Source: an uncultured Akkermansia sp.
Lineage (GTDB): Bacteria > Verrucomicrobiota > Kiritimatiellia > RFP12 > JAAYNR01
Direction of reading: 5' to 3'
Length of the DNA: 54,895 bases
Assembly: GCA_964580075.1 (NCBI GenBank)
Contig: CAZOJL010000006.1
Coordinates: 1-54,895, forward strand
A model generated the notes under the pieces. It saw nothing but the letters and a program-made list of their open reading frames with translations. It searched no databases and was not told the origin of the DNA. A program made the translations under genes and the position numbers. Positions 6,209 to 26,851 of the stretch are shown here, one piece after another. Each line of letters begins with the position of its first letter. The first letter of the stretch is position 1.

Positions 6209-7368
6209 AAGACGACCTACGCCTGGTGTTCTGGGAACTGACGGCGCGTTGCAATCTGAAGTGTTGCCACTGTCGCGCCGAAGCTCACGACGCCTTTGTC
6301 GCCGGTGAACTGACAACCGCACAGGTGCTGGACGTGGCGCGCGATATCCGCGCCGTCGGCGATCCCATCCTTGTCCTCACCGGCGGCGAGCCGCTGGTGA
6401 GGCCGGACTTCTTCGAGATCGCCCGCGCCTGCACGGGCCTGTTCAGCCGGGTGGCGCTGGCGACCAACGGCACGCTCATCGACGATGATCTGGCGCGCCG
6501 CATCGTCAGCACCGGCATCCAGCGCGTCAGCGTCAGTCTCGACGGCGCCCGGGCGGCCACCCATGACGCCTTCCGCGGCGTCCCGGGCAGCTTCGACGCC
6601 ACGATCCGCGGTTACGATGCGCTGGCACGGGCCGGCGCTTCGCTCCAGGTCAACGCGACCGTGGCCCGGAACAACATCGCCGAAGTCCCGGCGTTGCTGG
6701 ACTTCCTGCTCGAACGCAAGGTGGACGCCTTCCATGTGTTCGCGCTCGTCCCGGTCGGCTGTGGCGCCCAGATCAGCGATGACGCACGGCTCTCCTCTGA
6801 ACAAATGGAGACTTTTCTTCGCTGGCTGTTTGAGCAATCCATCGCGTTGCGCGACCGCATCCACATCAAGGCGACCTGTGCGCCGCAGTATTACCGGATC
6901 ATGCGGGAAGTGTCGCGCGAGAAGGGGCTCCCGCCGCCCGGCGCGGGTCATGGCGGCCACGGACCGGCGAGCGGCAATGGCATGCAGGCGATGACCCGCG
7001 GCTGCCTGGCCGGCTCCGCCGTATGCTTCATCTCCCGGACCGGCAACGTCCAGCCCTGCGGCTATCTCCCCGTGTGCGTGGGAAACGTCCGCCAGCAGCC
7101 CTTCGGCGAGATCTGGCGCCACGCCGCCGTCTTCGCGGCCCTCCGGGACCCCGGCCAGCTCAAAGGGAAGTGCGGCTCCTGCGGCTACCGCGTGATCTGC
7201 GAAGGGTGCCGCGCCCGGGCCTTCGCCGCCACGTCGGATTTCATGGCCGAAGATCCCGATTGTTCGTACGGCCTGCCCGCAGGGGTCGAGGATGTGAAAC
7301 AGACGGCTGATGAAGCGCGAATGAAAACGGAAACCACTGGTTTTTTCGGAAGAGACCCGATATCATAG
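6205..7368 (+). CDS. ahbD: Radical SAM/SPASM heme synthase (AhbD/NirJ2-like)
   Basis: Starts MKDDLRLVFWELTARCNLKCCHCRAEA. C-terminal CGSCGYRVICEGCRARA SPASM cysteines. ATGA overlap with ahbC. Confidence 0.65.
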   Translation: MKDDLRLVFWELTARCNLKCCHCRAEAHDAFVAGELTTAQVLDVARDIRAVGDPILVLTGGEPLVRPDFFEIARACTGLFSRVALATNGTLIDDDLARRIVSTGIQRVSVSLDGARAATHDAFRGVPGSFDATIRGYDALARAGASLQVNATVARNNIAEVPALLDFLLERKVDAFHVFALVPVGCGAQISDDARLSSEQMETFLRWLFEQSIALRDRIHIKATCAPQYYRIMREVSREKGLPPPGAGHGGHGPASGNGMQAMTRGCLAGSAVCFISRTGNVQPCGYLPVCVGNVRQQPFGEIWRHAAVFAALRDPGQLKGKCGSCGYRVICEGCRARAFAATSDFMAEDPDCSYGLPAGVEDVKQTADEARMKTETTGFFGRDPIS

Positions 7369-7399
7369 CCGCACTTGCCAATGTGGTTAAAAAGCCGAG

Positions 7400-10300
7400 G
7401 TGGACGTGGCGCAGACAGAACGGGAACAGGCGGTTTTGAACATCCTTCAGAACCTTCAGGATCTCGACGGGCTGAAACGCCTGTTCTGGGAGGAATTGAA
7501 CTACGAGCGGGAGAACAAGCCGCTCAGCCCGCGTCAATGGCCGGACAGTGCCAGGCAAGCCCTTGCCGAAGACCCGGTTCTTTTTGCCAGTGGCGGCGAG
7601 GACAAGGCATTCCACGTTGTTTACTGTCGCCTGGCTTCACCCGATTTGAGTCGTGGGCTTGAGCGCCCGGTTGTGAACCAACTGCTTCGCGACCATCCCT
7701 ACGCCTTGTTCGTATTCTCGAATAAGGATCAATCTGCCTGGCACTTCCTGAACGTCAAGTATGACGAGAAAGCCGAGAACAGGCGTCTGTTTCGTAGAAT
7801 CACGGTCAGGCCGGGCGCTGGTTTGCGCACGGCGACGGAGCGCGTTCAACTTCTGGACCTGGCCGGGATCAATCCCAAATTGTTTGGCATCGCGCCGCTG
7901 GCGATCCAACAACGCTGCGACGTGGCTTTCGATGTCGAAGCGGTCACAAAAGATTTCTTCCGCGAAGTCGCCAACTGGTACTTCTGGGCGCTGAAACACG
8001 TCGCGTTTCCGAAGGATGCGCCCAAGGAGGCTGACGGCCACGACCACATCAGCGTGATCCGCCTCATCACGCGCCTCATCTTTTGCTGGTTCGTGAAAGA
8101 AAAAGGACTCATCCCCGACGGCCTTTTCGACGAGCGCACACTCGCCCGGACTCTCACTGGCTTCGAGCCGGCGAAGACCAGCGACAAGGAATCTGTTTTC
8201 TACAGAGCCATCCTGCAAAATCTATTTTTCGCCACACTCAATACCGAAATGGACAAGCGCGGCTGGACGAAGGAAGAACAGAATTTCATGGCGCACAGCC
8301 TCTACCGTCATCGCGACTGTTTCAGCGAACCGAAATCCGCGCTCGATTTGTTCAAGGAGATCCCGTTCCTCAACGGCGGGTTGTTTGAATGTCTCGACAA
8401 AGACCTCGGCCTGCCTGCCGCGCCGCCTGCCTGTGCCGCCACGGCAGACAGGAACGCGGCGCAGGCAGGCGAAAACGCGAAGCCGCGCTACGTCCGCATT
8501 GACGGTTTCTCCCGGCGCGAAGACAGCCAGCCCATCGTCCCGGACTTTCTCTTCTTCGGCGGAGAGCGCGAAGTGGATTTGAGCGCGGATTACAATGACA
8601 AGAAATTCGGACGCGTGCCGGTGCGCGGCCTCATTCACATTTTCACCCGCTACCACTTCACGATCGAGGAAAACACGCCGATCGAGCAGGAAGTCGCGCT
8701 CGACCCGGAATTGTCCGGCAAGGTGTTTGAAAACCTCCTCGCGGCCTATAACCCGGAAACCGGCGCGACCGCCCGCAAACAGACCGGCTCGTTCTACACG
8801 CCGCGCGAAATCGTCAACTACATGGTGGACGAGGCGCTCATCGCCTGTTTGAAGGAAAAACTTGAAGGTGGCACAGGCATTCCTGCCTGTGGTGGAGATG
8901 CACAGACAGGAATGTCTGTGCCACCCTTGCCCAATCGCGGCGTGCGGCCACTCCCGAACCTGGAAACGAAGTTTGTTGCCGCCAACACACTCATTGGCGT
9001 GAACCGACCCGGCCAGCAATTGCTTCGCAACCTCGACATTGACAAGAAGGAAGCCGAACTGCGCGACGTACGCAGACGGCACTTTCTTGCCCGGAATCTC
9101 CGCGACAAACGCAAGTGCCGCGATGATGACGCCAGACTCCGCGCCGAAATCGCCGAACTGCTCAAAGGCGACGGATGGGACACCGCCACCGCCCGCAAAC
9201 TCGCCTCATGGGACCCCTACGACCAGAACGCCTCCGCGGATTTCTTTGATCCCGAATGGATGTTTGGGATCATGGACGGCTTCGCGGTGGTAATTGGCAA
9301 TCCTCCTTATGGGCTGGTTGGCAGTGATCGAGTTGAGGCGCGGGCATACTATACTTCAGGGCGCTTCAAACTGACGGCATACAAGATAAATCTTTATCTG
9401 CTGTTCTTGGAACGCGGCCTCGAATTGCTCAACGGGCAGTCAGGCATTCTGAGCTTCATTATTCCAAAATCACTTGTGTTCAATTCATATTTTGAGGCAA
9501 CACGACGAAAGCTTCTCGACCAATATTGTGTCCCGCTAATCGTAGAGGTAAGAAAAAAGGTGTTTGAAGCAGCGGAAGTGGGCGATAGCGTTCTTTTCTT
9601 CAGTGCCGCACATCGTCCAACTGCCAATTCCAGACTGGAGTATAGAGTAGTCGAAGACGTGAGTCCCGGCAGCCAAGTCATTTCGATGCAAGCCAATCTA
9701 CAGACGGAATTGGCTGCGTCGATCGGAGCGCGATTTCGTTTATCGAGCGTCAAAATTCCAAAGACGCGGAATACCCTCGGCGATCTCTGGGAAGTGAGCA
9801 ACGGACTAAACCCGGGCAACGTAAGGCATCTCCTGCTTTCCGCCACCAGACTCACTCCGAAACACAGAAAGATGCTTCTCGGACGGGATATCCAAAGATA
9901 CGCGCTCAAGTGGTCGGGAACGTGGGTTAATTTTGATCCTTCATTGAAAGAAACGATCAAGCCGAGCGAAACACGGTCAAAAAAAGGAATGACTGCTCAA
10001 CAGCACGTGGACTTCGCTCTCCGTTCACCCGAGATATACAAACCGCATAAGGTGATGGTCAGAAAGACAGCCGACCGAATTGTTGCATGCTTTGATCTCG
10101 ATGGACTGTGCTTTGATTCGCTGTCGTATGGAATCCACCCGAAATCCAATGGGTTCAATCCGAAGTTTCTTCTAGGTTTATTGAATTCGACAGTGCTTGG
10201 ACACATTCATGCAGAACTCTCGCAGAACCAGGAAAAGGTATTTGCGAAGGTTTTGGCCGAGAACCTCCGTAAGCTTCCCATGCCCAATCTCAACCACAAC

Positions 10301-10480
10301 CTTGCAGATGATCGTGCGAAACACGACGCTCTTGTGGCTTTGGTTGACCGCATTCTCGTCGCAAAGCAGACGAATCCCGCCGCCGACACGAGCGCGTTGG
10401 AGCGGGAGATAGACCAACAGGTTTACGCCCTCTACGGGCTGACGCCGGAGGAGATCAAGATTGTGGAGGGGGCGAAATGA
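7400..10480 (+). CDS. Large N6-adenine DNA methyltransferase of the type IIG / Eco57I / BREX PglX-like class, probably catalytically dead (SAM-binding motif I region replaced)
   Basis: 1026-aa ORF with a GTG start. Contains FLNGGLFE, GSFYTPREIV (motif X), PLPNLETKF and VVIGNPPYG (motif IV), a C-terminal TRD-like region, and the tail LEREIDQQVYALYGLTPEEIKIVEG. No DPACGSG-like motif I is visible between FYTP and NPPY; a palindromic repeat sits there instead. Confidence 0.75.
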   Translation: MDVAQTEREQAVLNILQNLQDLDGLKRLFWEELNYERENKPLSPRQWPDSARQALAEDPVLFASGGEDKAFHVVYCRLASPDLSRGLERPVVNQLLRDHPYALFVFSNKDQSAWHFLNVKYDEKAENRRLFRRITVRPGAGLRTATERVQLLDLAGINPKLFGIAPLAIQQRCDVAFDVEAVTKDFFREVANWYFWALKHVAFPKDAPKEADGHDHISVIRLITRLIFCWFVKEKGLIPDGLFDERTLARTLTGFEPAKTSDKESVFYRAILQNLFFATLNTEMDKRGWTKEEQNFMAHSLYRHRDCFSEPKSALDLFKEIPFLNGGLFECLDKDLGLPAAPPACAATADRNAAQAGENAKPRYVRIDGFSRREDSQPIVPDFLFFGGEREVDLSADYNDKKFGRVPVRGLIHIFTRYHFTIEENTPIEQEVALDPELSGKVFENLLAAYNPETGATARKQTGSFYTPREIVNYMVDEALIACLKEKLEGGTGIPACGGDAQTGMSVPPLPNRGVRPLPNLETKFVAANTLIGVNRPGQQLLRNLDIDKKEAELRDVRRRHFLARNLRDKRKCRDDDARLRAEIAELLKGDGWDTATARKLASWDPYDQNASADFFDPEWMFGIMDGFAVVIGNPPYGLVGSDRVEARAYYTSGRFKLTAYKINLYLLFLERGLELLNGQSGILSFIIPKSLVFNSYFEATRRKLLDQYCVPLIVEVRKKVFEAAEVGDSVLFFSAAHRPTANSRLEYRVVEDVSPGSQVISMQANLQTELAASIGARFRLSSVKIPKTRNTLGDLWEVSNGLNPGNVRHLLLSATRLTPKHRKMLLGRDIQRYALKWSGTWVNFDPSLKETIKPSETRSKKGMTAQQHVDFALRSPEIYKPHKVMVRKTADRIVACFDLDGLCFDSLSYGIHPKSNGFNPKFLLGLLNSTVLGHIHAELSQNQEKVFAKVLAENLRKLPMPNLNHNLADDRAKHDALVALVDRILVAKQTNPAADTSALEREIDQQVYALYGLTPEEIKIVEGAK
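8409..8470. repeat. REP-like imperfect palindrome, in frame inside the methyltransferase ORF
   Basis: GCCTGCCTG..CCTGCCTGTGCCG / CGGCAGACAGG..CAGGCAGGC arms. Shares the CCTGCCTGTG / CAGACAGG core with the 8867 and 25610 copies. Translates as LPAAPPACAATADRNAAQAG. Confidence 0.55.
8867..8925. repeat. REP-like palindrome, in frame inside the methyltransferase ORF
   Basis: GGTGGCACAGGCATTCCTGCCTGT..ACAGACAGGAATGTCTGTGCCACC. Near-perfect 24-nt arms. Translates as GGTGIPACGGDAQTGMSVPP. Confidence 0.8.
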
Positions 10481-10592
10481 GAACCGCCATTAGCGCCATG
10501 CTCTCCAATCTTAAGTCGCTGGCCGTGGTGCGGGTGATCGAGGATGCGGACAACGTGGTGGAGAGAATGTCTGCGAAACAAGGAGTGCAACT

Positions 10593-12344
10593 ATGATCAC
10601 AAAACTGGTACTGAAGAATTTCAAGAGCATAGCCGGGCAAACGTATGATCTGACGAAGTTTGATCTGTTGGTGGGGCGAAACAACTGCGGCAAGAGCACC
10701 ATCCTGCAAGCCATGGCGATTTGGCAGTTCTGCGTGGATGAGTTTCACCGCGCACGCAGAAGCGGAAGCAACGGCATCCAAATCGTTCTGCCAAACTTCA
10801 CCGCTTTGCCGGTGCCGGAGTTCAACCTCTTGTGGCATGCAAAGGTTGACAGGAAATATGCTTTGGTTGATGGCAAACGATCCAAGAAGACCGACTTTGT
10901 CTTGATTGAAATCGAACTCACCTGGTTGGCCGCCAATCGGGAGCTTCGGTCTTTCGGTGTGCAGCTTCGATACACGGCGGCGCAATCCGTTTACGCGATT
11001 CCGATGCAAGGTTGGAAGATCTTTCGAGAGATGGAAAAGGATCTGAGTTTTCCGAAGATCGCGTATGTTCCCCCGTTTTCCGGCCTTGAGCCCAGCGAGG
11101 AGTGGAGAGATGAAGGTCCGCTCAGAAAACAGGTCGGCAAGGCTCAGCCGGGGAGCATTCTCCGTAATCTCTTGCTCAAAGTGTGTCCCGCGCCGCCGCG
11201 CGATCACACCGGGCGCATCGCCAAGACGTACGAACCGCCTGCGGAATGGAAGGAACTGAAGCAGGTTGTCAGTCGCTGGTTCTCTGTTGAGTTGACGGAA
11301 CCCCAGTACGAGCGCGGGGTGGACACGCAGATTCTCTGTGAATACAAGCAGGGCGGCAAGTCGTACGACATTATCTCCGGCGGAAGCGGCTTCCATCAGG
11401 CGTTGACGCTCTTGGGTTTTCTCTACGGCTACCGCCCGACCACGCTTCTTCTGGACGAACCCGACGCCCACATGCATGTGAATCTTCAACGTGAAATGCT
11501 CGACTACTTCAAGAAGAAAGCCAGCGAAACAGGCGTCCAATTCCTCCTGGCAACGCATGCCGAGGAGCTGATCAGAGGTGTTGACCCGAGTCAGGTGGTA
11601 TCCATTCTGCAGCATGAGCCGCGTCGGCTGACTTCTGCGACCGGTGTGCTGAGCGCGATGGCCGACGTGTCCAACGCGGAACTCAGCCAGCTCGCCGCTT
11701 CGCCATTTATCCTGTATGTCGAAGGCGAAACCGATGAACGCATTTTACGCGCCTGGGCTCCCACCTGCAAAGCCGATAATGCGCTTGCGAAGGTTTGTTT
11801 TCATACCATGGGCGGCGGCACCAAGAAGCTGATGAAAGATCATGCGGACCGGCACTACGAAGGTGTCCGGCAGGTGTTTCCAGAGGCGCGGCGTTTGATG
11901 CTGTTCGATTATGACAGCGACGAAAACGCTTTCCACCCTCCAGGAGAAAATTCCGCGCTGTTTGAGTGGGGGCGCAAGAACATTGAGAACTATCTTCTCG
12001 TACTTGATGCGTGGATGCGTACGGTGACCAAGGAATTAGGATTGCCGGACGATGATTTATTGGCGGAACCGGCTCGGCAGGTCATCAGGGACTTCTTTTC
12101 CAATGAAAATCTAACGCTACCCCGAGGGCAGACTTGGGAAAGCGTGTCGGCGAACGTCTTTAAAGTGGTGGACGGCAAGAAGCTGCTTTTTGACTCTAGC
12201 GAGGCGCTGTTCACGAAACTTGAGAGGATGGAGCCGCCCCTTAAGGCGATCCGCGAGAAGATCGCGGGCATGATGGGCGAGAACGAGATACATGATGACG
12301 TGAAACGGTTCTTCGCCAAGTTGCGCACCACGGTTGGTGACTGA
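10593..12344 (+). CDS. ABC-type ATPase fused to a DUF4435/TOPRIM-like nuclease domain (PARIS AriA-AriB-like fusion or OLD-like)
   Basis: Walker [10 protein letters not shown], Walker [13 protein letters not shown]-loop LLATHAEE. C-terminal [13 protein letters not shown] and FDYDSDE acidic TOPRIM-like motifs. Confidence 0.6.
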
Positions 12345-12355
12345 AGGAGCGAACA

Positions 12356-12841
12356 ATGGCAAGCGGATCTTCTATAGAATGGACCGAGTCGACATGGAAT
12401 CCGGTCACAGGCTGCACGAAAATCAGCGCGGGCTGTGCGCACTGCTACGCGGAGCGCATGGCCCGCCGGTTGCAGGCCATGGGTCAGCCGAATTACCGCA
12501 ACGGGTTCAAGGTCACATGCCATCACGATGTGCTGGGGCACCCGATGCGGTGGAAAAGGCCGCAGGTGATTTTCGTGTTTCTGTCGCTGGAACCTTTGCT
12601 AGGCCCATTGCCCAGGCTTGATCTCAATGGGATCGGCTGGGTGATCGTCGGCGGCGAATCCGGCCCGGGTGCGCGCCCGATGGACTCGGCCTGGGCGGCC
12701 GACATCCGCGACCCGTGTCTCGCCGCTAATGTGCCGTTCTTCTTCAAGCAATGGGGCGGCGTGCAGAAAAAGAAAGCTGGGCGTTTATTGGAGCACCGCA
12801 CGTGGGATCAAATGCCCCAGTTATCGGAGGTTGGCGCATGA
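12356..12841 (+). pseudogene. DUF5131 (phage Gp37/Gp68) family gene with an apparent in-frame internal deletion
   Basis: N-terminus [30 protein letters not shown] and C-terminus [33 protein letters not shown] are typical. The central segment expected after [10 protein letters not shown] (NSMSDLF...) is absent. 161 aa versus my recollection of about 250 aa for the family. Confidence 0.55.
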
Positions 12842-12899
12842 TCTCTGGACCATGCGTCGCGAGAAGATCGATCTGCGTTAAGTAACTAAGGAGACCATC

Positions 12900-14789
12900 A
12901 TGCCGAGAACCAACAAGACAGCCAACGAACAACGGCTCAGCGCCGAGCAAATCGCCTTCTTGAAGGAAAAGATGGGCCACTTCGCAGATCGGAACCCGTC
13001 CGCAGGGATCGCGCGCACCGACTGCAAACAGCTTTTCGAATATGTGGCGGTCCAGAAGATCACGTACCTCTATGACGATGAACTGCTCGAAGGCCTTCTG
13101 CACGTGGATCGTAAGCGAACCGGCAAGGCTGAAGAGTTGTTGGACGCCTACCTGATTCTGGATCAGGGCGATGAGGTCCAACTCAAACTCTTTCAGTTCA
13201 AGTGGAAGGAGGACTACAGCGGGGGGATTTCGACCAAGGAACTCCATCATTTTGTCACCCGCATGAATGCGGTCTTCCTGCACGGCGATCTTCAGGACGA
13301 CAAGACTCTGGAGGCCTTCAAGGAGGTTCGCGAGGCTTTCGACGCCGCCCTGTCCGCAAACAAGCGCGCCCGGCCGCGAATCCAGTGTTACTACGTCGTC
13401 AACGGGCAGAACGTTTCACCCACCGACGTCGCCAAGATTCAGGAAATCCGCGACATCTTCGCACACGACCGACAGGCCTATGGGTTTACGTTCGAGACCT
13501 ATGGCGGTACGGACATCTACAGCCTGTGCGCACTCGGCCGCGTCCCGATCCAAGAGGAGACGCTGGAGGTGAACCACGAATGGGGCAATGAGTCATTCCT
13601 GTTGCACAACATTGGCGCCAATCCCAACGGTATGCCGCTGAAAGTTATGGTGGGATTCGTCAACGTGAACCAGTTGATCCGACTGGTAGACCGTTACAGC
13701 AACAACGAATTGTTCGAGAAGAATGTCCGGCTCTTCCTCGGCACAGGCAAGGATGTGAACAAAGGGATCATCAAGACGGTCACCAGCAACGAGAGTGTCT
13801 GGTTCGGCTACATGAACAACGGTGTGAGCATGACCGCCGAGGATGTCCGCGTGGACCTTCCCGCTAGCAAGGGCAAGGTGCGCGTGCGGCTGACGGGGAT
13901 GCAGATCATCAACGGATGCCAGACGGTCAATGCGCTCTACCATGCCAAATATTCGCCCGACCTGAAGGATCGCTTCCAAGGCAATTCGAACGTCATGGTG
14001 CGCATTTACCAGATCGATCCCGCAAACAAGCCGTTTCACGATGCGCTGATCATTGCGACGAACTCGCAGAACGCGATCCGGCCGGAGGACTTGGTCTCGA
14101 ACGATGCGACGCAGTGCGCCATCCAGCGGGTCTATCAGGAGTACGGCATCGGCTATGAGCGAAAGGAGGGTGAAACACCTCCCGGCCATGGTTATCAAAT
14201 GACCTTCTCGAAGGAACAAGCCGCAATGGCTTACCTTGGTGTCATCGACGGAAAGTGCTCCAAGCTCCGAAACTCGCTCAGCCGTAGGGAGTTCTTCCGT
14301 CAAGGTGAAGATTATTATCGCGTTTTCAACCTCCGTGGATCCGAAGGAGAGTCGCCGTCCGGGTCGCTCCCCGAAGGGTTCGAGCCTGGCGCTGCCGCCA
14401 ATGCGCGCGCATTGGATATCTTGGCGGCGCGATGCATCGAGGAGGCGTGCCGCGTGAATATTGCTAAAGTGCCCAAGCAGGATCGTGGTCCGCTGAAAAA
14501 AGGCGCGTACTATTTGGCTCGCATCATTTTCCTGCAAAATGAGGCGCAGGTTCTGGATGTCGTGGCCAAATTGAAGGGCCAGGAGAGGAAGCCTTGCGTT
14601 TCCAAGGAGGTGATCGATCCCGTATCTATGATCGGAAACAATGGTTTTATCGCCGCACGAGGCGTGTTTGAAGCCGCGATCACGGAGTATCTGGCCAAAG
14701 AGGGCGGCAACGAGGACGCCGCACTAAAGAACACGGCTTTTGCATCGTTGGTCGATGAGCGGAGCGTACTGAAGATGGAGGGAATATGA
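12900..14789 (+). CDS. AIPR (abortive infection phage resistance) family protein
   Basis: 629-aa ORF with AAGGAG RBS. Central IINGCQTVNALY motif characteristic of AIPR proteins. Confidence 0.75.
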   Translation: MPRTNKTANEQRLSAEQIAFLKEKMGHFADRNPSAGIARTDCKQLFEYVAVQKITYLYDDELLEGLLHVDRKRTGKAEELLDAYLILDQGDEVQLKLFQFKWKEDYSGGISTKELHHFVTRMNAVFLHGDLQDDKTLEAFKEVREAFDAALSANKRARPRIQCYYVVNGQNVSPTDVAKIQEIRDIFAHDRQAYGFTFETYGGTDIYSLCALGRVPIQEETLEVNHEWGNESFLLHNIGANPNGMPLKVMVGFVNVNQLIRLVDRYSNNELFEKNVRLFLGTGKDVNKGIIKTVTSNESVWFGYMNNGVSMTAEDVRVDLPASKGKVRVRLTGMQIINGCQTVNALYHAKYSPDLKDRFQGNSNVMVRIYQIDPANKPFHDALIIATNSQNAIRPEDLVSNDATQCAIQRVYQEYGIGYERKEGETPPGHGYQMTFSKEQAAMAYLGVIDGKCSKLRNSLSRREFFRQGEDYYRVFNLRGSEGESPSGSLPEGFEPGAAANARALDILAARCIEEACRVNIAKVPKQDRGPLKKGAYYLARIIFLQNEAQVLDVVAKLKGQERKPCVSKEVIDPVSMIGNNGFIAARGVFEAAITEYLAKEGGNEDAALKNTAFASLVDERSVLKMEGI

Positions 14790-15607
14790 CCACGAAGAGC
14801 AAAAAACAGTCGCGTGAAGCCGAATCGCTCTCTCGGCGGATGGAACGTCTGGCGGGCGGGGCGGCGAAACGCGGGGTCCGCGACGCGCAAGATTTGGTCT
14901 ACGACGCCTGGGAGGCGGCGAACAGCGACGAGGCGTTCGATCTGCTGACCCAAGCCGTCGAACTCGACCCGACCAACGTGGACGCCTGGCTGGGGCTGAT
15001 GCGCTACGAGCCGCTTGACGGCAAGGAGGAGGTCGTGTTTCTCCGCCGTCTCGTGGCCTTGGGTGAGAAGAACCTCGGCAAGAAGGTGTTTCGTGAGGGC
15101 AAGGGCATCTTCTGGGGGCTTTTTGAGACGCGGCCCTACATGCGGGCGCGGGCTCGGCTGGCCTTTCGCCTGATGGAGGCCGGGCGGCTGGAGGAGTCCG
15201 TGGCCGAACACGAGGGCATGCTCGAACTCTGTTCGAACGACAATCTGGGCGTGCGCTACGGGCTCATGGCGCTCTATCTGGCACTGAACAACCTCGACGG
15301 CGCGAATCGCCTCTTCCGGGAATACGACGAGCGGGAGCACCGCGCGATGTTCGCCTGGGCCTACGTGCTCGAACGCTATCTGGCGGGCGATACGGGGGGC
15401 GCAACCCAAGCGCTCGCGGCGGCGCGGAAGCAGAACGAGCATGCCGAAGCCTATTTTGCCGCGCTCAGGAGGTTGCCGAAGAAGATGCCGGGATCGTACG
15501 CCATGGGGAGTCCAGAGGAGGCCGTGATCGCATGGGAGATCCTCAAGCCGGCATGGAAGAAGCATCCGGAGGCGCAAGCCTGGCTAATCGGCCAGTGCGC
15601 GAAGTGA
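14786..15607 (+). CDS. TPR-like all-helical protein, translationally coupled to the AIPR gene
   Basis: 273-aa ORF with ATGA overlap to the AIPR stop. Repeated helical A/L/E-rich TPR-like segments. No catalytic motif recognised. Confidence 0.45.
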   Translation: MTTKSKKQSREAESLSRRMERLAGGAAKRGVRDAQDLVYDAWEAANSDEAFDLLTQAVELDPTNVDAWLGLMRYEPLDGKEEVVFLRRLVALGEKNLGKKVFREGKGIFWGLFETRPYMRARARLAFRLMEAGRLEESVAEHEGMLELCSNDNLGVRYGLMALYLALNNLDGANRLFREYDEREHRAMFAWAYVLERYLAGDTGGATQALAAARKQNEHAEAYFAALRRLPKKMPGSYAMGSPEEAVIAWEILKPAWKKHPEAQAWLIGQCAK

Positions 15608-15644
15608 GTGAGCTTTGGGAAAAGAACGTGCTGGGAGGTCAGCC

Positions 15645-15815
15645 ATGATCCGACTGCACGTCACCGTGGAGGGGGCAACGAAACAGCGATTCCTGAAGGA
15701 TGTACTTTGTCCTCAAACTCGCTTGCGTTGCTCCGATAAAGGCGCTACAGTGAGTCGCAAATCGGGAATGCTCCCTGCGCATTATGGATGTGGTGCGTCC
15801 GATTCTACGGCATAA
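15645..15815 (+). pseudogene. Possible remnant of a DUF4276-family (TOPRIM-like) gene
   Basis: GGGAGG RBS followed by MIRLHVTVEGATKQRFLKDVL, which resembles DUF4276 N-termini. The ORF is only 56 aa and the remainder shows no resemblance. Confidence 0.3.
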
Positions 15816-15864
15816 TGATGCTTGGCTGCATTTTGGATTTATTGGATCAGTGAGCGAGGTGGAT

Positions 15865-18666
15865 ATGGATGCTGCTTGGAAATGGAATGGCGCTCGGTGG
15901 TGGAAGTTCGACTGCCACGCCCATACGCCACAGTCGGATTGTTATGGCGAAGGGGACGCCGCGCTCAAGGCGCGCACGCCCGAGGAGTGGCTGCTCGACC
16001 ACATGCGGGCCGGGTTCGATTGCGTCGCCGTTACCGACCACAATTCGGGCGAATGGATTGACCGGCTTCAGGAGGCGGCGGCGAATGAAACCTTGCGGAA
16101 ACATCCCGACTTTCGCGAGTTGGTTCTCTTTCCGGGAGTGGAACTGTTCGTCAACGGCGGGTTCCATGTATTGGCGATTCTGGGCGCGGATAAGACCGGG
16201 GCGGACGTGACGCGCTTGACTGGTGCTTGCGGATACGATTCGGCCAGTGGGGCCACAACCAAGTCTTTTTCCGAAGTTGCCGCCGCCATTGCCGCAACTG
16301 GCGGCGTGGTGTTGCCGGCGCACGTGGATGAACGAGACAAGAAGGGGCTTTGGGCGTTGTCTGACGAAAAAACGTGGCAGCAGGTGTTGGCTGTCAAGAC
16401 GTTGACAGCCTGGGAGGTTATGGATGCCTCCCAGCAACCACCGGACGTGGTTGTCCGATCCGGGCGGCAGTTTACGCGCATCCTTGGTTCGGATAGCCAT
16501 TGTCCCGAAAAAGTCGGCACGCGGTGGTCTTGGGTGAAGATGACCATGCCGAGCATTGGCGAACTGCGTTTGGCTCTGCAAGACGGCGAACTGGCGGTCC
16601 GCCCCTCGGACAAATACCCGGACGATCCGAACAATGTTCTGCCCGCTTTGGCGGTGGAATCCGTCACGGTCACGGATGCCAAGTATTTGGGTCGCACTTT
16701 CAGTGACGGAAGATTGAATACTTTTGCAGCCGCTTTTGGCCCTTGGCTGAATGCCATCATTGGCGGGCGCGGCACCGGGAAGTCGTCGCTGCTGGAATTT
16801 ATGCGCATCGCCTTGCGCCGGGAGGGCGAACTCGCAAAAGCCTTCGATAAGGAACAGATACGCGAAAATTTTGAGCGCTATCGGATAACCGGCGAGAAAG
16901 GTCTCTTGCTTCCGGGCGCCCTTATTCAGATCGTCTACCGGAAGGAAGGGCAGCGTTATCGCATCCAATGGAGCGTTAACGGGAACGCAACGGCCATCGA
17001 AGAGGAAACGCATGGCGGCTGGGTGCGCGCGGACGGCGACATAGCCGCTCGTTTTCCGGCGAGCATCTACAGCCAGAAGCAGTTGTTTGCCCTGGCGGGC
17101 AATCCAGCCGCTTTGTTAGACATCATTGACCAGACACCGGACATCAATCGCCAGGAATGGGATCAGAAGAGAAGCGAATTGGAAGGATCGTTTCTGTCTT
17201 TGCGCGCCAAGGAACGCGAGTTACAGGCACGCTTGACCGATGAAACACGACTGCGCGGAGAACTGGCCGACATCGAGCGACGATTGGCTGTCTGGGAAAA
17301 GAAGGCCACGCGCGACACCTTAAGAGCCTTCCAGCGACTGGCCCAACAGAGGGTTGGGCTGGAAAACTGGACAGCGGCTTTAGACGAAACGGTTGCGCGG
17401 CTCGCCGCTTATCCTGACGCCTTGACGCTGGAGACGCTGAACACCAGCATCTTCGACACCGGAACGCAGAATGAGAAAGCCGTTCTGGATCGGATACAAA
17501 CCACCACCGCCGCCTGGGCAGGCGTGATCAAGGCGGTCCAGACTGGGGCTGTTGATGCCGGGCGGGTGGCGCAGGAATGGAAAACATGGCTGGACCGTTC
17601 GGAATGGAAGAAACAGGCGCAGGAGATTGAGGCGGAATATGCGGGCTTGATTGAGCAATTGGCCGGGGAAGGCGTGGCGGATGCGGCCGACTATGGGAAT
17701 TGGTTGCAACAGAAACAAGCGCTGGAGGCCCGTCTCCGCGCGATTGCCGGTTATCGGACGGAAATTGCGCGATTGCAGGCACAGGCAACGGGCAAGTTGT
17801 CCGAAATTCGATCTCATCGTCGCGACCTGACGGAGAAGCGGCGGCAGTTTCTAAGCAACATACTGGCCACCAACAGTTTTGTGCGCATGGATGTGATACC
17901 TTATGGCGAATTGGATGATGCGCATGGTCAGTTGTCGGAATTGTTGCGCTGTGAAGACGCAAGGTATTCCACGGATGTTACCGGGTTACTGGACAGTGTG
18001 TATTTTCCTGACGGCAAGTCCTACATTTCGACATGGAAAGGCGTGGATGCGAGCCAGAGAATGCAGCTAGAGGAGGACATGGATAAGCGCTTGGTCGCTC
18101 TTAAGAAGCGTATCGGCGATTGCGCATTGGGAACAGTGCCGGAATCGCTTGGCCGTGGTTGGTTCCGGAATAAATTGAAGGATGCCGCGCAATCGCCGGA
18201 AACGCTCAATCATCTCGACCTTTCCTGGCCCGGGGACAGTGTGCATGTCTCCTATGCGAATCCGGCCACCGGCAAGTTCAGCGCGTTGGATCAGGCATCG
18301 CCCGGACAAAAAACGGCGGCTATTCTGGCCTTTGTGCTTTCCTATGGGCAAGACCCCATGATCCTGGACCAGCCGGAGGACGACCTGGACAATCACTGGA
18401 TCTACGAACTGGTGGTTCGCCAGATTCAGGAGAGCAAAAAGCGGCGGCAAATCATCGTCGTCACGCACAATGCCAATATCGCTGTGAACGGCGATGCGGA
18501 ACTGGTGCTCGCCCTGAAGTCGGATGGCGGTCGCACGGAGTACGAAGCGCAAGGCGGTTTGCAGGAAGCGGATGTTCGCGACACTGTCTGTCTGGTCATG
18601 GAAGGCGGCAGGGATGCCTTTGCGCGGCGATACGACCGGATTGTTGGAGGAACAGGACATGTATGA
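15865..18666 (+). CDS. PHP phosphoesterase domain fused to an SMC/Rad50-like coiled-coil ABC ATPase
   Basis: PHP metal ligand motifs FDCHAHTPQS, VTDHNS, FHVLAIL, LPAHVDE, GSDSHCP. Walker A GGRGTGKSS. Long Q/E/R/A-rich coiled coil. SPGQKTAA signature-like motif, Walker B ILDQPEDDLD, IIVVTHNANI. An alternative upstream ATG at 15784 is possible. Confidence 0.7.
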   Translation: MDAAWKWNGARWWKFDCHAHTPQSDCYGEGDAALKARTPEEWLLDHMRAGFDCVAVTDHNSGEWIDRLQEAAANETLRKHPDFRELVLFPGVELFVNGGFHVLAILGADKTGADVTRLTGACGYDSASGATTKSFSEVAAAIAATGGVVLPAHVDERDKKGLWALSDEKTWQQVLAVKTLTAWEVMDASQQPPDVVVRSGRQFTRILGSDSHCPEKVGTRWSWVKMTMPSIGELRLALQDGELAVRPSDKYPDDPNNVLPALAVESVTVTDAKYLGRTFSDGRLNTFAAAFGPWLNAIIGGRGTGKSSLLEFMRIALRREGELAKAFDKEQIRENFERYRITGEKGLLLPGALIQIVYRKEGQRYRIQWSVNGNATAIEEETHGGWVRADGDIAARFPASIYSQKQLFALAGNPAALLDIIDQTPDINRQEWDQKRSELEGSFLSLRAKERELQARLTDETRLRGELADIERRLAVWEKKATRDTLRAFQRLAQQRVGLENWTAALDETVARLAAYPDALTLETLNTSIFDTGTQNEKAVLDRIQTTTAAWAGVIKAVQTGAVDAGRVAQEWKTWLDRSEWKKQAQEIEAEYAGLIEQLAGEGVADAADYGNWLQQKQALEARLRAIAGYRTEIARLQAQATGKLSEIRSHRRDLTEKRRQFLSNILATNSFVRMDVIPYGELDDAHGQLSELLRCEDARYSTDVTGLLDSVYFPDGKSYISTWKGVDASQRMQLEEDMDKRLVALKKRIGDCALGTVPESLGRGWFRNKLKDAAQSPETLNHLDLSWPGDSVHVSYANPATGKFSALDQASPGQKTAAILAFVLSYGQDPMILDQPEDDLDNHWIYELVVRQIQESKKRRQIIVVTHNANIAVNGDAELVLALKSDGGRTEYEAQGGLQEADVRDTVCLVMEGGRDAFARRYDRIVGGTGHV

Positions 18667-19906
18667 CACACGCGAAGAACTGCTGGCAAAGATTCGCCTG
18701 GGAGAGGACACGACCTTTGAGATGAAGGCGGTTGTCTTCGCCGGTAATCAGGTTAGAGGACCGGGACGTGACGAACTGGCTGACGAACTGGCGGCGATCG
18801 CCAATACGTCCGAAGGGGTTTGTCTGTTGGGCATCGACGACAAGAGTCGGGAAGTCACGGGCATTCCCGTCAACCGCCTGGACGCCGTGGAAGCGTTGGT
18901 TCGAGAAGTGCTGAACGACAGTATCGTTCCGCCGCTGACAGCGCGGGTGTTGCGCATGGAGTTGCCCGATTCGCTGGGTGAACTCAAGCCGATCGTGCGG
19001 ATCGATGTTCCGCGCAGTCTTTTTGTGCACCGTAGCCCGCACGGATATTTTCACCGCGTTGGGAGTTCAAAACGCGAACTTTCGCCGGAAATCCTTGCCC
19101 GGTTGTTTCAGCAACGCAGTCAATCCCGGATCATTCGGTTCGACGAGCAGGCGGTGCCCGAGACTTCAATTGCGGACTTGGACACCGCTTTATGGAGCCG
19201 GTTTGTCCGCGATGCGTCCGGCAATGCGGAGGAAATCCTTCGAAAACTGCGGATTGTGACAAATGACGATACCGGGGCAGAGCGACTTTCAGTTGGCGGC
19301 GTGCTGATGTGCACGCGTAACCCGGAACGGTGGCTCAGTGGCGCCCAGATTGAGGCTGTTTGTTACCGAGGGCTCACGCGCGATGCAAACTACCAACTCG
19401 ATGCCAGAACCATCACTGGCCCGCTCGACCGGCAGGTGTTCGATACATTGTCCTTTGTCGCGAAAAACATGCGGCGACCGGCCGTCAAAGACCCGGCGCG
19501 GAACGAGGTTCCGGAATACAGCGAACGCGCGTTATTCGAGGCCATCGTCAATGCGGTGGCGCATCGCGACTATTCGATTCACGCTTCACGAATACGCTGC
19601 TTTATGTTCGAGGATCGTGTCGAAATCTATTCGCCGGGGCCGCCGCCCAATAGCGTGACCGTGGAAAGCATGCCATTGCGACAGGCTACACGAAACGAAA
19701 TGGTTGCGTCACTGCTGTCCAATTGCCGTGCCGCCGGCGTTGCAGGCGGACTCGGCAGGACTTTCCTGATGGAGAAGCGTGGGGAAGGCGTGCCGATCAT
19801 CATGAACGAGAGCCTTCGATTGTCAAATCGGAAGCCGGAATATCAACTTATAGATAACACGGAAATCATGCTTTCCATCTGGGCCGGCAAGAGCGCCGTC
19901 GCGTAA
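18659..19906 (+). CDS. AlbA_2 (Schlafen-like) domain plus HATPase_c_4 (GHKL-like) protein
   Basis: Start overlaps the upstream stop (ATGTATGA). N-terminal TFEMKAV..LAAIANTSEGVCLLGIDD (AlbA_2-like). C-terminal EAIVNAVAHRDYS..DRVEIYSPGPPP (HATPase_c_4-like). Confidence 0.7.
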   Translation: MYDTREELLAKIRLGEDTTFEMKAVVFAGNQVRGPGRDELADELAAIANTSEGVCLLGIDDKSREVTGIPVNRLDAVEALVREVLNDSIVPPLTARVLRMELPDSLGELKPIVRIDVPRSLFVHRSPHGYFHRVGSSKRELSPEILARLFQQRSQSRIIRFDEQAVPETSIADLDTALWSRFVRDASGNAEEILRKLRIVTNDDTGAERLSVGGVLMCTRNPERWLSGAQIEAVCYRGLTRDANYQLDARTITGPLDRQVFDTLSFVAKNMRRPAVKDPARNEVPEYSERALFEAIVNAVAHRDYSIHASRIRCFMFEDRVEIYSPGPPPNSVTVESMPLRQATRNEMVASLLSNCRAAGVAGGLGRTFLMEKRGEGVPIIMNESLRLSNRKPEYQLIDNTEIMLSIWAGKSAVA

Positions 19907-19910
19907 CCGC

Positions 19911-20027
19911 GTTGATCCCGCAGCGGATACGTCGGCGTGGGAGCGGGAGATCGACCAACAGGTTTACGCCCTTTACGGCCTGACGGAGGAGGAGATCAAA
20001 ATCGTGGAGGGGAGCACGCAACGATGA
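19911..20027 (+). pseudogene. Orphan 3' end of a second PglX/type IIG-like methyltransferase gene (tail copy B)
   Basis: Translates VDPAADTSAWEREIDQQVYALYGLTEEEIKIVEGSTQR-stop. Homologous to 10370-10480. Its TGA overlaps the ATG of the PIN gene. Confidence 0.75.
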
Positions 20028-20521
20028 ACAAGGATAGAAAAATGAGACCGAAAGTCTATTTGGAAACGAGCGTGGTGAGTTACCTGGCGGCACGACCGAG
20101 TCGCGACCTGGTGGTCGCGGCGAATCAGGAAGTGACGCGGGAATGGTGGGCAAATGCACAAGAACGTTTGGATTTGTTTCTGTCTGAAATTGTTTTGAAG
20201 GAAATCGCGGCGGGCGATCGTGTTGCGGCGGCTGAACGTAAACGCTATCTTGTGAAAGTGCCGCTCTTGCCGTTGAACCTCGATGCGCGAGCTTTGGCGG
20301 ATCGCTATCTTGCGGCAAGGATTATGCCGGCAAAGGCGGCGACCGATGCCCTGCATATTGCCTTGGCGACGGTGCACGGCATGGATTACGTGGTCACATG
20401 GAACTGTGCGCATATCGCCAATGCCCTTACGCAAAAGGCCATTGCCCGGATCAGCAGCGAAGGCGGGTATGAACCGCCCGTGATCTGTACGCCTTTGGAG
20501 TTAATGGAGGACGAAGCATGA
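20024..20521 (+). CDS. PIN-like (VapC-family) toxin
   Basis: MNKDRKMRPKVYLETSVVSYLAARPSRDL..ATDALHIALA..VVTWNCAHI. Matches a widespread PIN-like family that has Glu in the first acidic position. Confidence 0.55.
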   Translation: MNKDRKMRPKVYLETSVVSYLAARPSRDLVVAANQEVTREWWANAQERLDLFLSEIVLKEIAAGDRVAAAERKRYLVKVPLLPLNLDARALADRYLAARIMPAKAATDALHIALATVHGMDYVVTWNCAHIANALTQKAIARISSEGGYEPPVICTPLELMEDEA

Positions 20522-20766
20522 AACCAGACCCGATTGTGGCGGAAGTCCGTAAAGTGCGGGAAGCGCATGCCCTGCGGCATGGAAACGATCTTCGAAGAAT
20601 CTATGCGGATATGAAGAAAGCCGAGGCTCGGGATCATTGGCCACAGGCGCAAGTTCGCGTGCAATCGCCCGTTCGCGCTTGCGTGGCGGAGGATTCCGCC
20701 CAGTATGTTGCGAAGAAGGGGCGTAGTGCCACCAGGCACGCGCCAAGCGATACTGGCGGAGCTTAA
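20518..20766 (+). CDS. Small partner protein of the PIN-like toxin (putative antitoxin)
   Basis: 82-aa ORF with ATGA overlap to the toxin. The N-terminus DPIVAEVRKVREAHALRHGNDLRRIYADMKKAE resembles partners found downstream of this PIN family. Confidence 0.4.
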   Translation: MKPDPIVAEVRKVREAHALRHGNDLRRIYADMKKAEARDHWPQAQVRVQSPVRACVAEDSAQYVAKKGRSATRHAPSDTGGA

Positions 20767-20861
20767 CGAACGCATTGGAGCGCGAGATCGACCAGCAGGT
20801 TTACGCCCTCTACGGCCTGACGCCGGAGGAGATTAAGATTGTGGAGGGGACGGTAAAATGA
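20767..20861 (+). pseudogene. Orphan 3' end of a third PglX/type IIG-like methyltransferase gene (tail copy C)
   Basis: Translates LEREIDQQVYALYGLTPEEIKIVEGTVK-stop. Differs from the intact gene's tail at five synonymous third positions only. Confidence 0.75.
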
Positions 20862-20898
20862 GAAACATACTTTTGCCCGGCAATACAGGAGGTTCCAT

Positions 20899-22107
20899 AT
20901 GACAACGCCCGTTTTTATTAAGCGCGTGGTGCTGAATAATTATAAAAGCATCAAAGAGTGTTCCGTCGCCCTGGGGCCGCTCACGTTTTTGGTAGGCCAG
21001 AACGGCGCGGGGAAGAGTAATTTTCTCGATGCGTTGCGACTGGTGACAGACGGACTGAACACCTCCCTTGAGCATGCCTTGCGGGAGCGCGGCGGCATTA
21101 ACGAAGTCCGGCGCCGTTCTTCGGGGCATCCCACGCATTTTGGCATCCGGCTTGAGTGGGTTCTTCCCAACGGAAGCGAAGGCGTTTATGCGTTTCGGAT
21201 TGGTTCTCAGAAGAAGGGCGGCTTTGAAGTTCAGCGCGAAGAGTGCCGCGTTTTCGAGCCGGATCGGGTGCAGGTGAGTTTCTACAAGGTGGAATGCGGG
21301 GTTCTGAAGAGTTCGAATTTCGAGGTCGCGCCGCCGACTTCGAGCGACCGGCTCTATCTGGTTTCCGCCGCCGGACTTCCGCCGTTCCGTCCGCTTTACG
21401 ATGCGTTGTCGCACATGGGGTTCTACAATCTGAATCCTGACGAGATCCGCGAACCCCAGCCGCCGGATCCGGGCGAGGTGCTTAAGCGGGACGGCAGTAA
21501 TCTGGCCAGCGTACTGGGACTGCTTGAAAAGGGCGGGGTTGAGCGGATTGTCGAGTTGCTGTCGAAGGTTGTCCCGGGGATACAGAATATTGAGGTCAGG
21601 CATGTCGGCAAAAAGGAAACACTGGAGTTCCGGCAACAGGTGGGTAAGAATAAAGACCCGTGGCGGTTTATGGCGGAGAATATGTCGGACGGTACATTGA
21701 GGGCGCTGGGAGTACTTACTGCGCTGTTCCAGTCCTCTAAGGCGGACGGCAAGCGGGTTCCTTTGGTTGGAATTGAGGAGCCCGAAACCGCTGTTCATCC
21801 CGGCGCTGCCGGTGTGCTGCGGGACGGGTTGCGGGCGGCTGCCGAGCTTACTCAAACCATTGTAACCAGTCACAGCCCGGATCTTCTGGATGACAAGGAA
21901 ATTGCCGATGAACACATTTTGGCAGTTATGAACCGGAATGGTGAAACCCTGATCGGCCCGCTGGACGACGCGGGCAGAACGGCAATTCGCCAACGTCTCT
22001 ACACGGCAGGGGAACTGCTTCGCTTGAATCAGATGGAGCCGGATCAGGATGTAATAAGCAAGGTTTCTTCGAATCAACTGGAGCTGTTTTCAGAGTACAA
22101 GCCATGA
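20899..22107 (+). CDS. AAA_15/AAA_21-type (RecF/SMC-like ABC) ATPase
   Basis: Walker A GQNGAGKSNFLDAL, Walker B-like LVGIEEPETAVHP, H-loop IVTSHSPDLLD. No nuclease domain recognised. Confidence 0.7.
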   Translation: MTTPVFIKRVVLNNYKSIKECSVALGPLTFLVGQNGAGKSNFLDALRLVTDGLNTSLEHALRERGGINEVRRRSSGHPTHFGIRLEWVLPNGSEGVYAFRIGSQKKGGFEVQREECRVFEPDRVQVSFYKVECGVLKSSNFEVAPPTSSDRLYLVSAAGLPPFRPLYDALSHMGFYNLNPDEIREPQPPDPGEVLKRDGSNLASVLGLLEKGGVERIVELLSKVVPGIQNIEVRHVGKKETLEFRQQVGKNKDPWRFMAENMSDGTLRALGVLTALFQSSKADGKRVPLVGIEEPETAVHPGAAGVLRDGLRAAAELTQTIVTSHSPDLLDDKEIADEHILAVMNRNGETLIGPLDDAGRTAIRQRLYTAGELLRLNQMEPDQDVISKVSSNQLELFSEYKP

Positions 22108-26800: not shown

Positions 26801-26851
26801 CGCGACGGCATCTGCGAATTGCCATGCAAGCGATATGGATGAAGTGCAGTT

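Follow-up and report, generated by a model that had tools for sequence, protein, structure and literature searches.

The DNA analyzed here is a 54,895-nucleotide stretch from an uncultured Akkermansia sp. (GenBank assembly GCA_964580075.1, contig CAZOJL010000006.1, positions 1 to 54,895 of the forward strand; hereafter the window). It contains a 19.4 kb defense block bordered by two core genes, i.e., a degenerate Eco57I/TaqI_C-type N6-adenine methyltransferase upstream (7400-10480; Pfam, PADLOC, and alignment) and a PLD(HKD)-SNF2 helicase-nuclease downstream (23993-26800; domain scan and BLASTP). All genes of the block are encoded on the plus strand. The block lies inside a heme-synthesis operon of the siroheme-decarboxylase pathway, with a glutamyl-tRNA reductase gene and two radical-SAM/SPASM genes upstream and a siroheme-decarboxylase-like gene and hemC/hemD downstream, and only about 30–50 nt of intergenic DNA flank it on each side (7368-7400 and 26800-26852). 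Its G+C content is 52–59% compared with 63–69% in the neighboring genes. No integrase and no flanking repeat were seen at the block edges, and the window contains no tRNA gene. Between the core genes, the 3' tail of the methyltransferase gene occurs two further times, and we analyzed what these orphan tails tell about the assembly of the block.

A repeat search of the window returned one three-copy direct repeat family at 10374-10471, 19915-20012 (86% identity), and 20752-20849 (81%), the last of which is truly homologous only from about position 20766. Both extra copies are on the same strand as the methyltransferase gene and each repeats its last ~100 nt. We also searched with a DNA profile of tails only, made from 41 methyltransferase genes of loci other than the window. 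It matched at 10329-10480 (tail A, the last ~50 codons of the 1026-codon open reading frame (ORF) 7400-10480), at 19909-20018 (copy B, E 6e-28), and at 20766-20861 (copy C, E 1e-23), and the matches to B and C are far beyond chance. A sequence-only reading of this DNA had claimed three copies of the tail by eye, each adjoining the stop codon of the preceding gene and ending with its own stop, and both claims held. From repeat search, profile, and codon comparison, orphan tail B (19909-20027) comprises the last ~38 codons plus stop and orphan tail C (20766-20861) the last ~31 codons plus stop. Copy B starts 3–9 nt past the TAA of the preceding gene (19904-19906) and ends in an in-frame TGA (20025-20027); copy C starts at the final base of the TAA of an 82-aa gene (20764-20766) and ends in an in-frame TGA at 20859-20861. 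Codon listing revealed zero in-frame start codons upstream of B and of C, we hence regard both as non-coding.

Over the 26 shared codons, A and C differ by six synonymous and zero non-synonymous changes, A and B by five and two, and B and C by seven and two. The sequence-only reading had given the same numbers for A and B; for A and C it had correctly called all differences synonymous and had counted five of them. The chance that six of six random substitutions are all synonymous is P about 1.6e-4. Among the differing codons, 70–86% were synonymous in the window pairs, compared with 56% in pairs of intact tails from other loci at similar divergence and with a neutral expectation of about 25%. 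This synonymous excess shows that the copies diverged while each of them ended a working gene. B and C are accordingly described here as the probable 3' ends of other, closely related alleles of the methyltransferase gene, in agreement with the earlier view that the tails diverged as coding sequence in separate alleles and not by a fresh local duplication.

An assembly artefact, the concern attached to the sequence-only reading, was ruled out. The gene order of the window recurred at eight places for the methyltransferase and at ten places shown, with 22 contigs read, for the HEC-01A gene that follows tail C. Moreover, window positions 19851-20900 were exactly matched in nine independent ENA, JGI, and Logan assemblies. 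One contig of the 22 stops 168 nt upstream of HEC-01A, yet it exactly matches the window.

The methyltransferase belongs to a very large family with at least 8000 proteins in our search. Its N-terminal ~490 residues are 65–92% identical among Verrucomicrobiota, Lentisphaerae, Phycisphaerae, and Deltaproteobacteria, and the specificity region is variable. These residues 1-490 (7400-8860) had no Pfam match, yet no other part of the protein is as conserved; they include many invariant aromatics, and this domain possibly contacts the helicase. The consensus of the tail is '..LVxRILAAKxxDPxADTSALEREIDxxVYxLYGLTxEEIxIVE'. We compared 160 related loci with 10-kb flanks, 80 from species-representative genomes (the best 80 of ~560 species-level matches) and 80 from metagenomes, which are referred to by L numbers where needed. 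The nearest relatives of the system are metagenome-assembled genomes of the PVC group, and relatives of the methyltransferase-helicase system were seen in other genomic contexts.

In 42 of the 160 loci, a close homolog of the PLD-SNF2 helicase lies downstream of the methyltransferase on the same strand. Both genes are directly adjacent in L017, L022, L034, L039, and L047, and in most other loci 0.6–8.5 kb of varied co-oriented genes lie between them. We therefore describe a methyltransferase plus helicase-nuclease system with a variable slot. Slot genes are known or candidate defense genes (PADLOC models for Ppl, AbiU, HEC-01A, PDC-M41B, and OLD/AriA-like proteins), and some of these co-oriented extra genes were also found outside the host system.

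Orphan tails are not confined to the window. Leaving aside the true ends of frameshifted or split methyltransferase genes, we counted about 30 further orphan tails in about 21 loci, i.e., in about a fifth of the ~100 loci with any tail. They are co-directional with the methyltransferase, the only two minus-strand matches both being in L156. They begin 15 to ~70 codons before the stop and, where the profile match is strong, keep the 3' end. None of them contains the specificity domain: orphans match methyltransferase residues ~986-1025 only, whereas true gene ends match from residue ~873. About half of the stubs have a preceding stop codon within 25 nt of their start, and most next genes start -4 to +14 nt from the stub stop, like at the native methyltransferase junction. 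Some stubs are frameshifted or decayed (L050, L057, L070), as expected of older remnants. The cargo between stubs includes DUF4258/DUF2283 toxin-antitoxin-like genes (L057, L064, L068, L125), a reverse transcriptase (L069), an AAA_15/21 ATPase (L029), PDC-M41A (L043, L055), and an SPL-like radical-SAM gene (L016, L055, L123).

The other border of the slot has left fragments, too. Helicase 5' stubs of 13–54 codons were found in L021, L022, L030, L042, L043, L069 (two), and L123, and in three cases (L043; L069, two) an orphan tail follows them directly. In L043, helicase codons 1-36 ('MPAHD..AVGYLF') follow an AlbA_2 gene and are fused in-frame with the last 16 tail codons ('LYGLTEEEIRIVEGGR' followed by the stop), and the stop of the fused tail overlaps the GTG of the PDC-M41A gene. 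At this junction, 'AVGYLF/LYGLT', helicase 'LSGLT' and tail 'LYGLT' share bases. L069 has the order methyltransferase tail, helicase stub, orphan tail, reverse transcriptase gene, helicase stub, orphan tail, ORF, and full frameshifted helicase. L022 has a complete methyltransferase-helicase pair, upstream of which we found an orphan tail, an ORF of 291 aa, and a helicase stub of 19 codons. Candidate helicase/tail fusions 'RFVRLGY/RLYGLT' in L119 were unconfirmed by the helicase-head profile and were left out of the count. From the stubs of both genes it follows that both slot borders leave partial copies, and that the joints are illegitimate and variable, some of them at microhomology.

Cassettes and stubs can be shared between loci. 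In L016, L055, and L123 the same radical-SAM gene ends '..CNCTG' plus stop inside the tail fragment 'LYGLTEEEI..', which is one joint that travelled with its cassette; the radical-SAM proteins of L055 and L016 are 84% identical. In L055, a methyltransferase of a tail-less subfamily and OLD come first, then an orphan tail and a cassette of two genes; the second of these matches its counterpart in L016. Also, in a comparison of ~120 tails, those sharing a locus were often mutual best matches, with similarities of 0.91 for C to A of the window, 0.93 in L068, 0.90 in L029, 0.80 in L151, and 0.87 for the stubs of L057, compared with medians of 0.6–0.7. In L029, the left edge of the stub adjoins a palindrome resembling repetitive extragenic palindromic (REP) elements. 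Two tail fragments in L050 were considered as a target-site duplication; this was rejected, as they are only ~70% alike and internally rearranged.

The tails of the window delimit blocks of defense genes, as had been proposed from the sequence. Behind tail A, a 39-codon ORF or spacer (10477-10596) overlaps its neighbors with an ATGA at both ends; it is called as a gene in other assemblies and had no Pfam match. The spacer is kept beside tails in L009, L033, and L050, even without OLD. The first cassette gene is an OLD/Gabija/PARIS-like ABC ATPase (AAA_15/AAA_21, 10593-12344; Pfam and PADLOC). Its homologs stand right after the methyltransferase in L011 (order methyltransferase, OLD, AlbA_2, helicase), behind an orphan tail and spacer in L050, and as a truncated remnant in L009. 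L009 and the window share one contiguous block of 82% identity, which covers the specificity domain and tail A together with the spacer and 250 nt from the start of OLD; at this point, the OLD copy of L009 is cut off. The DUF5131 gene that comes next (12356-12841; PADLOC PDC-M41B, Pfam) matches in two separated stretches, having 161 aa compared with a ~241-residue model. The deletion is in-frame, and the partner PDC-M41A, found in L043, is absent in the window; the gene is a decayed cassette within the first block. Full-length DUF5131 versions occur in L060, L101, and L135.

Next follow an AIPR/AbiU-like gene (12900-14789) and its TPR partner (14786-15607; both from Pfam and PADLOC), a pair that in L024 stands directly after the methyltransferase tail with 83% nucleotide identity. 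The 107 nt past the TPR gene (15605-15711) are 79% identical to L024 17350-17456, and these follow an extra HEC-01A-like gene inserted behind the TPR gene, i.e., they mark a tail-less cassette boundary. A Ppl-like ABC ATPase (15784-18666; PADLOC Ppl 2e-140) and its AlbA_2/HATPase_c_4 partner (18659-19906) form a two-gene module with an 8-nt overlap, and the same pair with the same overlap was found outside any methyltransferase locus in L173 and L175. The AlbA_2 gene was considered as the partner of a lost helicase and rejected as such, being the second gene of this free-standing pair instead. The first block (10593-19906) is hence a mosaic of at least four modules.

Behind tail B, a VapC-like PIN gene (Pfam PIN; from 20024, native start probably 20042, to 20521) and its 82-aa partner (20518-20766) form a toxin-antitoxin-like pair. 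The ATGA at 20024, with which the stop of copy B had been said to overlap the PIN start, is real; the second ATG, 20042, is exactly where free-standing PIN genes become homologous at the nucleotide level, and it is therefore probably the native start. Homologs of the pair are free-standing with no tail nearby in L089-L092. The proposed search for a donor locus with a full methyltransferase before the PIN pair returned closest PIN homologs in unrelated contexts without a tail. As both this pair and the Ppl-like/AlbA_2 pair are free-standing elsewhere, they need not each stem from a methyltransferase-led locus. Behind tail C, a 14-codon mini-ORF (20858-20902) leads to a HEC-01A-type ABC ATPase (20899-22107; PADLOC HEC-01A 3e-162, Pfam). 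Like the 39-codon ORF, it bridges tail and cassette, its ATG lying over the tail stop (ATGA) and its stop over the ATG of the next gene. A protein with AlbA_2 and HATPase_c_4 (plus MarR-like) domains (22235-23989; domain scan) precedes the helicase, which has PLDc_2 at residues 123-211 followed by SNF2 and Helicase_C. An AlbA_2/HATPase_c_4 gene is the immediate upstream neighbor of the helicase also in L011, L024, L033, L043, and L135.

We propose, with a probability of roughly 0.6, that tails B and C are scars of recombination that loaded defense cassettes between the methyltransferase and the PLD-SNF2 helicase. DNA from a related locus would pair by homology with the conserved methyltransferase gene, or in other loci with the helicase gene as anchor, and would bring along its own specificity domain, tail, and cassette or cassettes. 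Its far end would be joined illegitimately within the resident tail, often at a few shared bases, so that the resident tail stub and all behind it would be pushed toward the helicase and retained, a process known as sequential displacement or homology-facilitated illegitimate recombination. A mirror process anchored in the helicase would give rise to the helicase stubs. Here, the HEC-01A/AlbA_2 block behind tail C would be the oldest, the PIN pair behind B would have come next, and the block behind A last; this order, the anchor used in the window, and the enzymology are what we infer from the arrangement. Existing stubs could then act as ordinary homology arms, by which cassette-plus-stub units would move by homologous recombination.

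Several observations carry this proposal. Many loci contain such stubs, which share one polarity and vary at the left end; the alleles they stem from diverged under coding constraint, and helicase stubs mirror the tail stubs at the other border. The methyltransferase offers the anchor, with an N-terminal half conserved across phyla next to a variable specificity domain. The 3' remnants B and C show synonymous-biased divergence, and ~30 stubs elsewhere add to them. L055, where a tail-less methyltransferase and OLD precede an orphan tail with its cassette, agrees well with displacement, and the contiguous block of L009 speaks for linked transfer. Since tails within a locus are often mutual best matches, the simplest reading is that donors were close relatives, as would be needed for a homologous anchor. 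The second model of the sequence-only reading, cassette exchange through recombination within conserved methyltransferase sequence, came closer to the data, in the form of one-sided homologous plus illegitimate joining and not of a hotspot site.

Other observations weigh against displacement. An all-against-all megablast of the 160 loci returned no near-identical locus pair that differs by exactly one block; it yielded deletions (L056 vs L016) and shared cassettes, and the pairs L055/L016 and L009/window resemble the displacement pattern. The comparison of strains, suggested earlier as a check, found no presence/absence polymorphism at the tails among the 22 contigs of the window's population. 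Displacement does not fully account for the position of the illegitimate joints, which lie in the last 15–70 codons and never in the ~1.2-kb specificity domain, although 'YGLT' microhomology covers some of them. The similarity of tails within a locus could also reflect gene conversion or an old in-situ duplication. The helicase-head profile found no helicase stub in the window, and module boundaries within 10593-19906 carry no tail, tails therefore mark only some of the events.

We weighed other origins of the tails against displacement. The first model of the sequence-only reading was one of telescoped tandem loci; here, three complete methyltransferase-cassette-helicase systems would have stood head to tail, and two deletions would each have removed a helicase together with the body of the next methyltransferase. 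Junctions as predicted by this model do exist: a helicase stub meets a tail in L043 and twice in L069, and L022 has a remnant unit ahead of a complete system. Large internal deletions occur as well, e.g., in L020 and in L056, where the methyltransferase is fused to the helicase when compared with L016. Whole stacked loci were nonetheless not seen, a second methyltransferase N-domain being found in 0 of the 42 loci, a result with power limited by the 10-kb flanks. The model would further require ~30 independent deletions, each with an end point in the last 15–70 codons of a gene of ~1,100 codons. In the window, B and C lack a helicase remnant and the first block is a mosaic, and the PIN and Ppl/AlbA_2 pairs exist as free modules. 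Moreover, insertion of a partial unit consisting of tail, cassette, and helicase head yields the same junctions equally well. Stacking of whole systems with subsequent deletion is less economical than displacement, and three separate methyltransferase-led loci, as originally stated, are not supported; we consider the model an unlikely, weaker variant. Insertion of circularised partial units, by comparison, may fit the present data like displacement does. Duplication of the resident tail in situ at each insertion, as a target-site or tandem duplication with later divergence in place, would account for tails of one locus being mutual best matches. Orphans without a start should then drift neutrally, yet the codon differences are synonymous in 6/6 cases between A and C and in 7/9 between B and C. 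Even if only A were constrained, ~40% synonymous differences are expected, for which 6/6 has P about 0.004. The tails of L093 (0.94) and L009 (0.92) are, moreover, nearer to tail A than copy C is (0.91), and we regard in-situ duplication as very improbable.

Both a dedicated recombination site and a retained function would give the tail itself a role. A site like attC/attI, at which a site-specific enzyme inserts or excises cassettes, is suggested by the integron-like array, in which a single fixed gene is followed by co-oriented cassettes with direct repeats in between, and by the same cassette-plus-stub units in several loci. The left ends of stubs, in contrast, range from -15 to -70 codons, some stubs are decayed, and other module boundaries are tail-less. 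At conserved residues, the tail has a codon identity of 0.51, compared with 0.52 for the N-terminal domain and 0.51 elsewhere (p = 0.71), the three tails on both strands fold no better than shuffles (z -1.3 to +0.5), and no integrase or transposase gene was among the island ORFs scanned. With no hairpin, no extra synonymous-site conservation, no fixed boundary, and no recombinase, we therefore read the tails as scars, and a dedicated site appears scarcely credible. Somewhat less remote, although still improbable, is that stubs are retained for a function, i.e., that they provide a ribosome-binding site, a stop/start overlap, or a small peptide for the first gene of the cassette. The 'VEG' codons GTGGAGGGG contain GGAGG, the stop of all three tails overlaps an ATG, and orphans with strong profile matches keep their 3' end. 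Expression signals, however, need ~20 nt and not 90–120, ribosomes do not arrive through B and C in the absence of an in-frame start, the PIN gene has its own start and its own upstream AAGGA, and stubs elsewhere are decayed. Promoter- and terminator-like sites were not found in the tails, counts being not above shuffles. Such a function could account for why the very 3' end is kept, but not for how the stubs arose.

A further step may tentatively be considered, although we hold it to be less probable than not: methyltransferase-tail and helicase-head stubs would be portable homology arms of a recombinase-free, integron-like array whose cassette-plus-stub units spread by ordinary recombination, and each proximal acquisition would swap the specificity domain. 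Portable arms would then be a general route of embedding in restriction-like systems, perhaps also in BREX, Hma, and Type I loci. Embedding is now used to discover defense systems, and the route by which genes enter is an open point. The stubs are a sequence record of such events in their polarity, junction types (microhomology, stop-codon-adjacent, and helicase-head fusions), and related-allele donors, and orphan border-gene fragments might serve as a simple bioinformatic marker to delimit cassettes and perhaps to order acquisitions. In the literature, we found no account of border-gene stubs delimiting embedded defense cassettes, nor of an embedding mechanism. Embedding, the kinds of cargo, and displacement arrays at toxin-immunity loci are already known; the use of scars as a clue to embedding appears to be new.

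Defense genes 'embedded' within the multi-gene systems Hma, bacteriophage exclusion (BREX), DISARM, and Type I restriction-modification have been described by Payne et al. (bioRxiv 10.1101/2024.01.29.577857). That work gives a cargo catalogue and remarks that what embedding means and where it comes from 'remains to be explored'; the word 'recombination' is absent from its text. The window resembles these cases in having co-oriented known or candidate defense genes nested between the core genes of a methylation-based system, and in its cargo: one gene strongly matches the HEC-01A model, and OLD-like ABC ATPases, PIN, and Schlafen/AlbA_2 proteins are typical. It differs in having stubs of the flanking core genes between its blocks, a feature relevant to the embedding route. 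Unlike Hma, which consists of the HmaA helicase, HmaB methylase, and HmaC DUF499 ATPase, the island encodes no DUF499 protein. Membership in Hma was also rejected on account of the helicase, the core of which is covered only in part by the HmaA model (4e-20 for the window protein and 5e-25 for the intact one of L011); 'C3a139 HKD+Snf2' was the best-matching model for the helicase.

The DUF499-centered, BREX-related Type-2 BR systems combine an N6-methyltransferase and an HKD-Swi2/Snf2 helicase with embedded auxiliary nucleases (Nucleic Acids Research 2026, PMC12839542), and a standalone DUF3780 gene is reported for 98% of the taxa (PMC12839542). Similarities are the helicase with N-terminal HKD/PLD and Snf2 core and the methyltransferase with Eco57I, N6_Mtase, and TaqI_C. 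In contrast to Type-2 BR, neither DUF499 nor DUF3780 was found in any island ORF, a scan that did not include the genes upstream of the relatives' methyltransferase. Also, the core genes are directly adjacent in five relatives, leaving no room between them, and the methyltransferase has the ~490-aa N-terminal region without Pfam match that is 70–90% identical across phyla.

The closest mechanistic parallels are displacement arrays, such as the orphan modules of contact-dependent growth inhibition (CDI). In Vibrio cholerae, orphan arrays of effector-immunity genes at the type VI secretion (T6SS) locus Aux1 are explained by sequential displacement, with homology-facilitated illegitimate recombination as the proposed process (PMC5361080, PMC9711863). 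There, a crossover in the conserved upstream gene is combined with a second joint, which is illegitimate and lies where the resident variable gene has its 3' end, and downstream genes are retained; the same papers cite the 'C-terminal displacement' of Rhs. The window shares with these arrays the conserved upstream anchor, retained downstream genes, and the lack of a recombinase, and probably also the second joint at a 3' end and successive acquisitions. It differs in three respects: the cargo consists of anti-phage cassettes in a restriction-like system and not of immunity genes; displacement affects a methyltransferase, the specificity domain of which would be exchanged at each event; and the helicase head provides a second conserved border with mirror-image stubs. 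An integron comes to mind with the one-directional, promoter-less cassette array behind a fixed gene, the repeated separators, and a plausible proximal addition. Unlike in an integron, there is no integrase among the island ORFs and no attC-like fold, repeat boundaries are variable, and the repeats are gene fragments. Phase-variable Type I hsdS shufflons have inverted repeats between alternative segments and a nearby recombinase, whereas the tail copies are all direct repeats and the stubs lack the specificity domain.

Both core genes of the window carry internal deletions, a point the sequence-only reading did not mention. The methyltransferase lacks ~140 aa that are present in all 38 aligned relatives and that hold S-adenosylmethionine motif I, 'LDPAVGSGAFP...YGVDIQPIAVQIAKMRFFISLIVDQKID'; the block lost after 'DPAVGSGAFP' reads 'YGVDIQPIAVQIAKMRFF'. 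The missing block is replaced by 'GGTGIPACGGDAQTGMSVPPL', the translation of a palindromic REP-like element at 8867-8925 (inverted repeat, alignment, and pattern search). In the helicase, BLASTP against the L011 homolog gave 90% identity for residues 1-539 and 81% for 561-935, with L011 residues 540-739 (200 aa) missing. This in-frame deletion coincides with a second copy of the palindrome at 25609-25663. Hence, both core-gene deletions are in-frame and each is marked by the same ~57-nt palindrome, of which the 55-kb window has exactly two copies. We infer that the methyltransferase and the helicase of the window are both inactive. With the core genes gutted and most cargo ORFs still open, embedded cargo can apparently outlive its host. 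Decay of the host system is common in this methyltransferase family, slot-removing large deletions that fuse or truncate methyltransferase and helicase being found in L056 compared with L016, L020, L073/L099, and L080.

In 2.2 Mb of fetched loci, the palindrome family (up to four mismatches) was found only in the methyltransferase linker (L019, L037, L040, L152, L153) and at the tail junction of L029. The ~1395-codon gene of L019 (699-4787) contains seven copies. The family members P0022, P0025, and P0028 have ~1380–1390 aa, and JGI lists one of them as 'REP element-mobilizing transposase RayT'. These findings suggest that a REP/RAYT element has settled in-frame in the methyltransferase linker.

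In a more distant clade the core genes are reversed, a weaker PLD-SNF2-like gene being located upstream of the methyltransferase (L059, L063, L065, L070, L071, L077-L079, L081-L088, and many of L126-L172). Orphan tails downstream of the methyltransferase occur also there, in L070 and L151, and the methyltransferase 3' end attracts cargo whatever the position of the helicase. L086, L157, and L158, which are 98–100% alike, differ by rearranged ~190-nt repeats right after the methyltransferase stop, and this could be a recent event at the tail.

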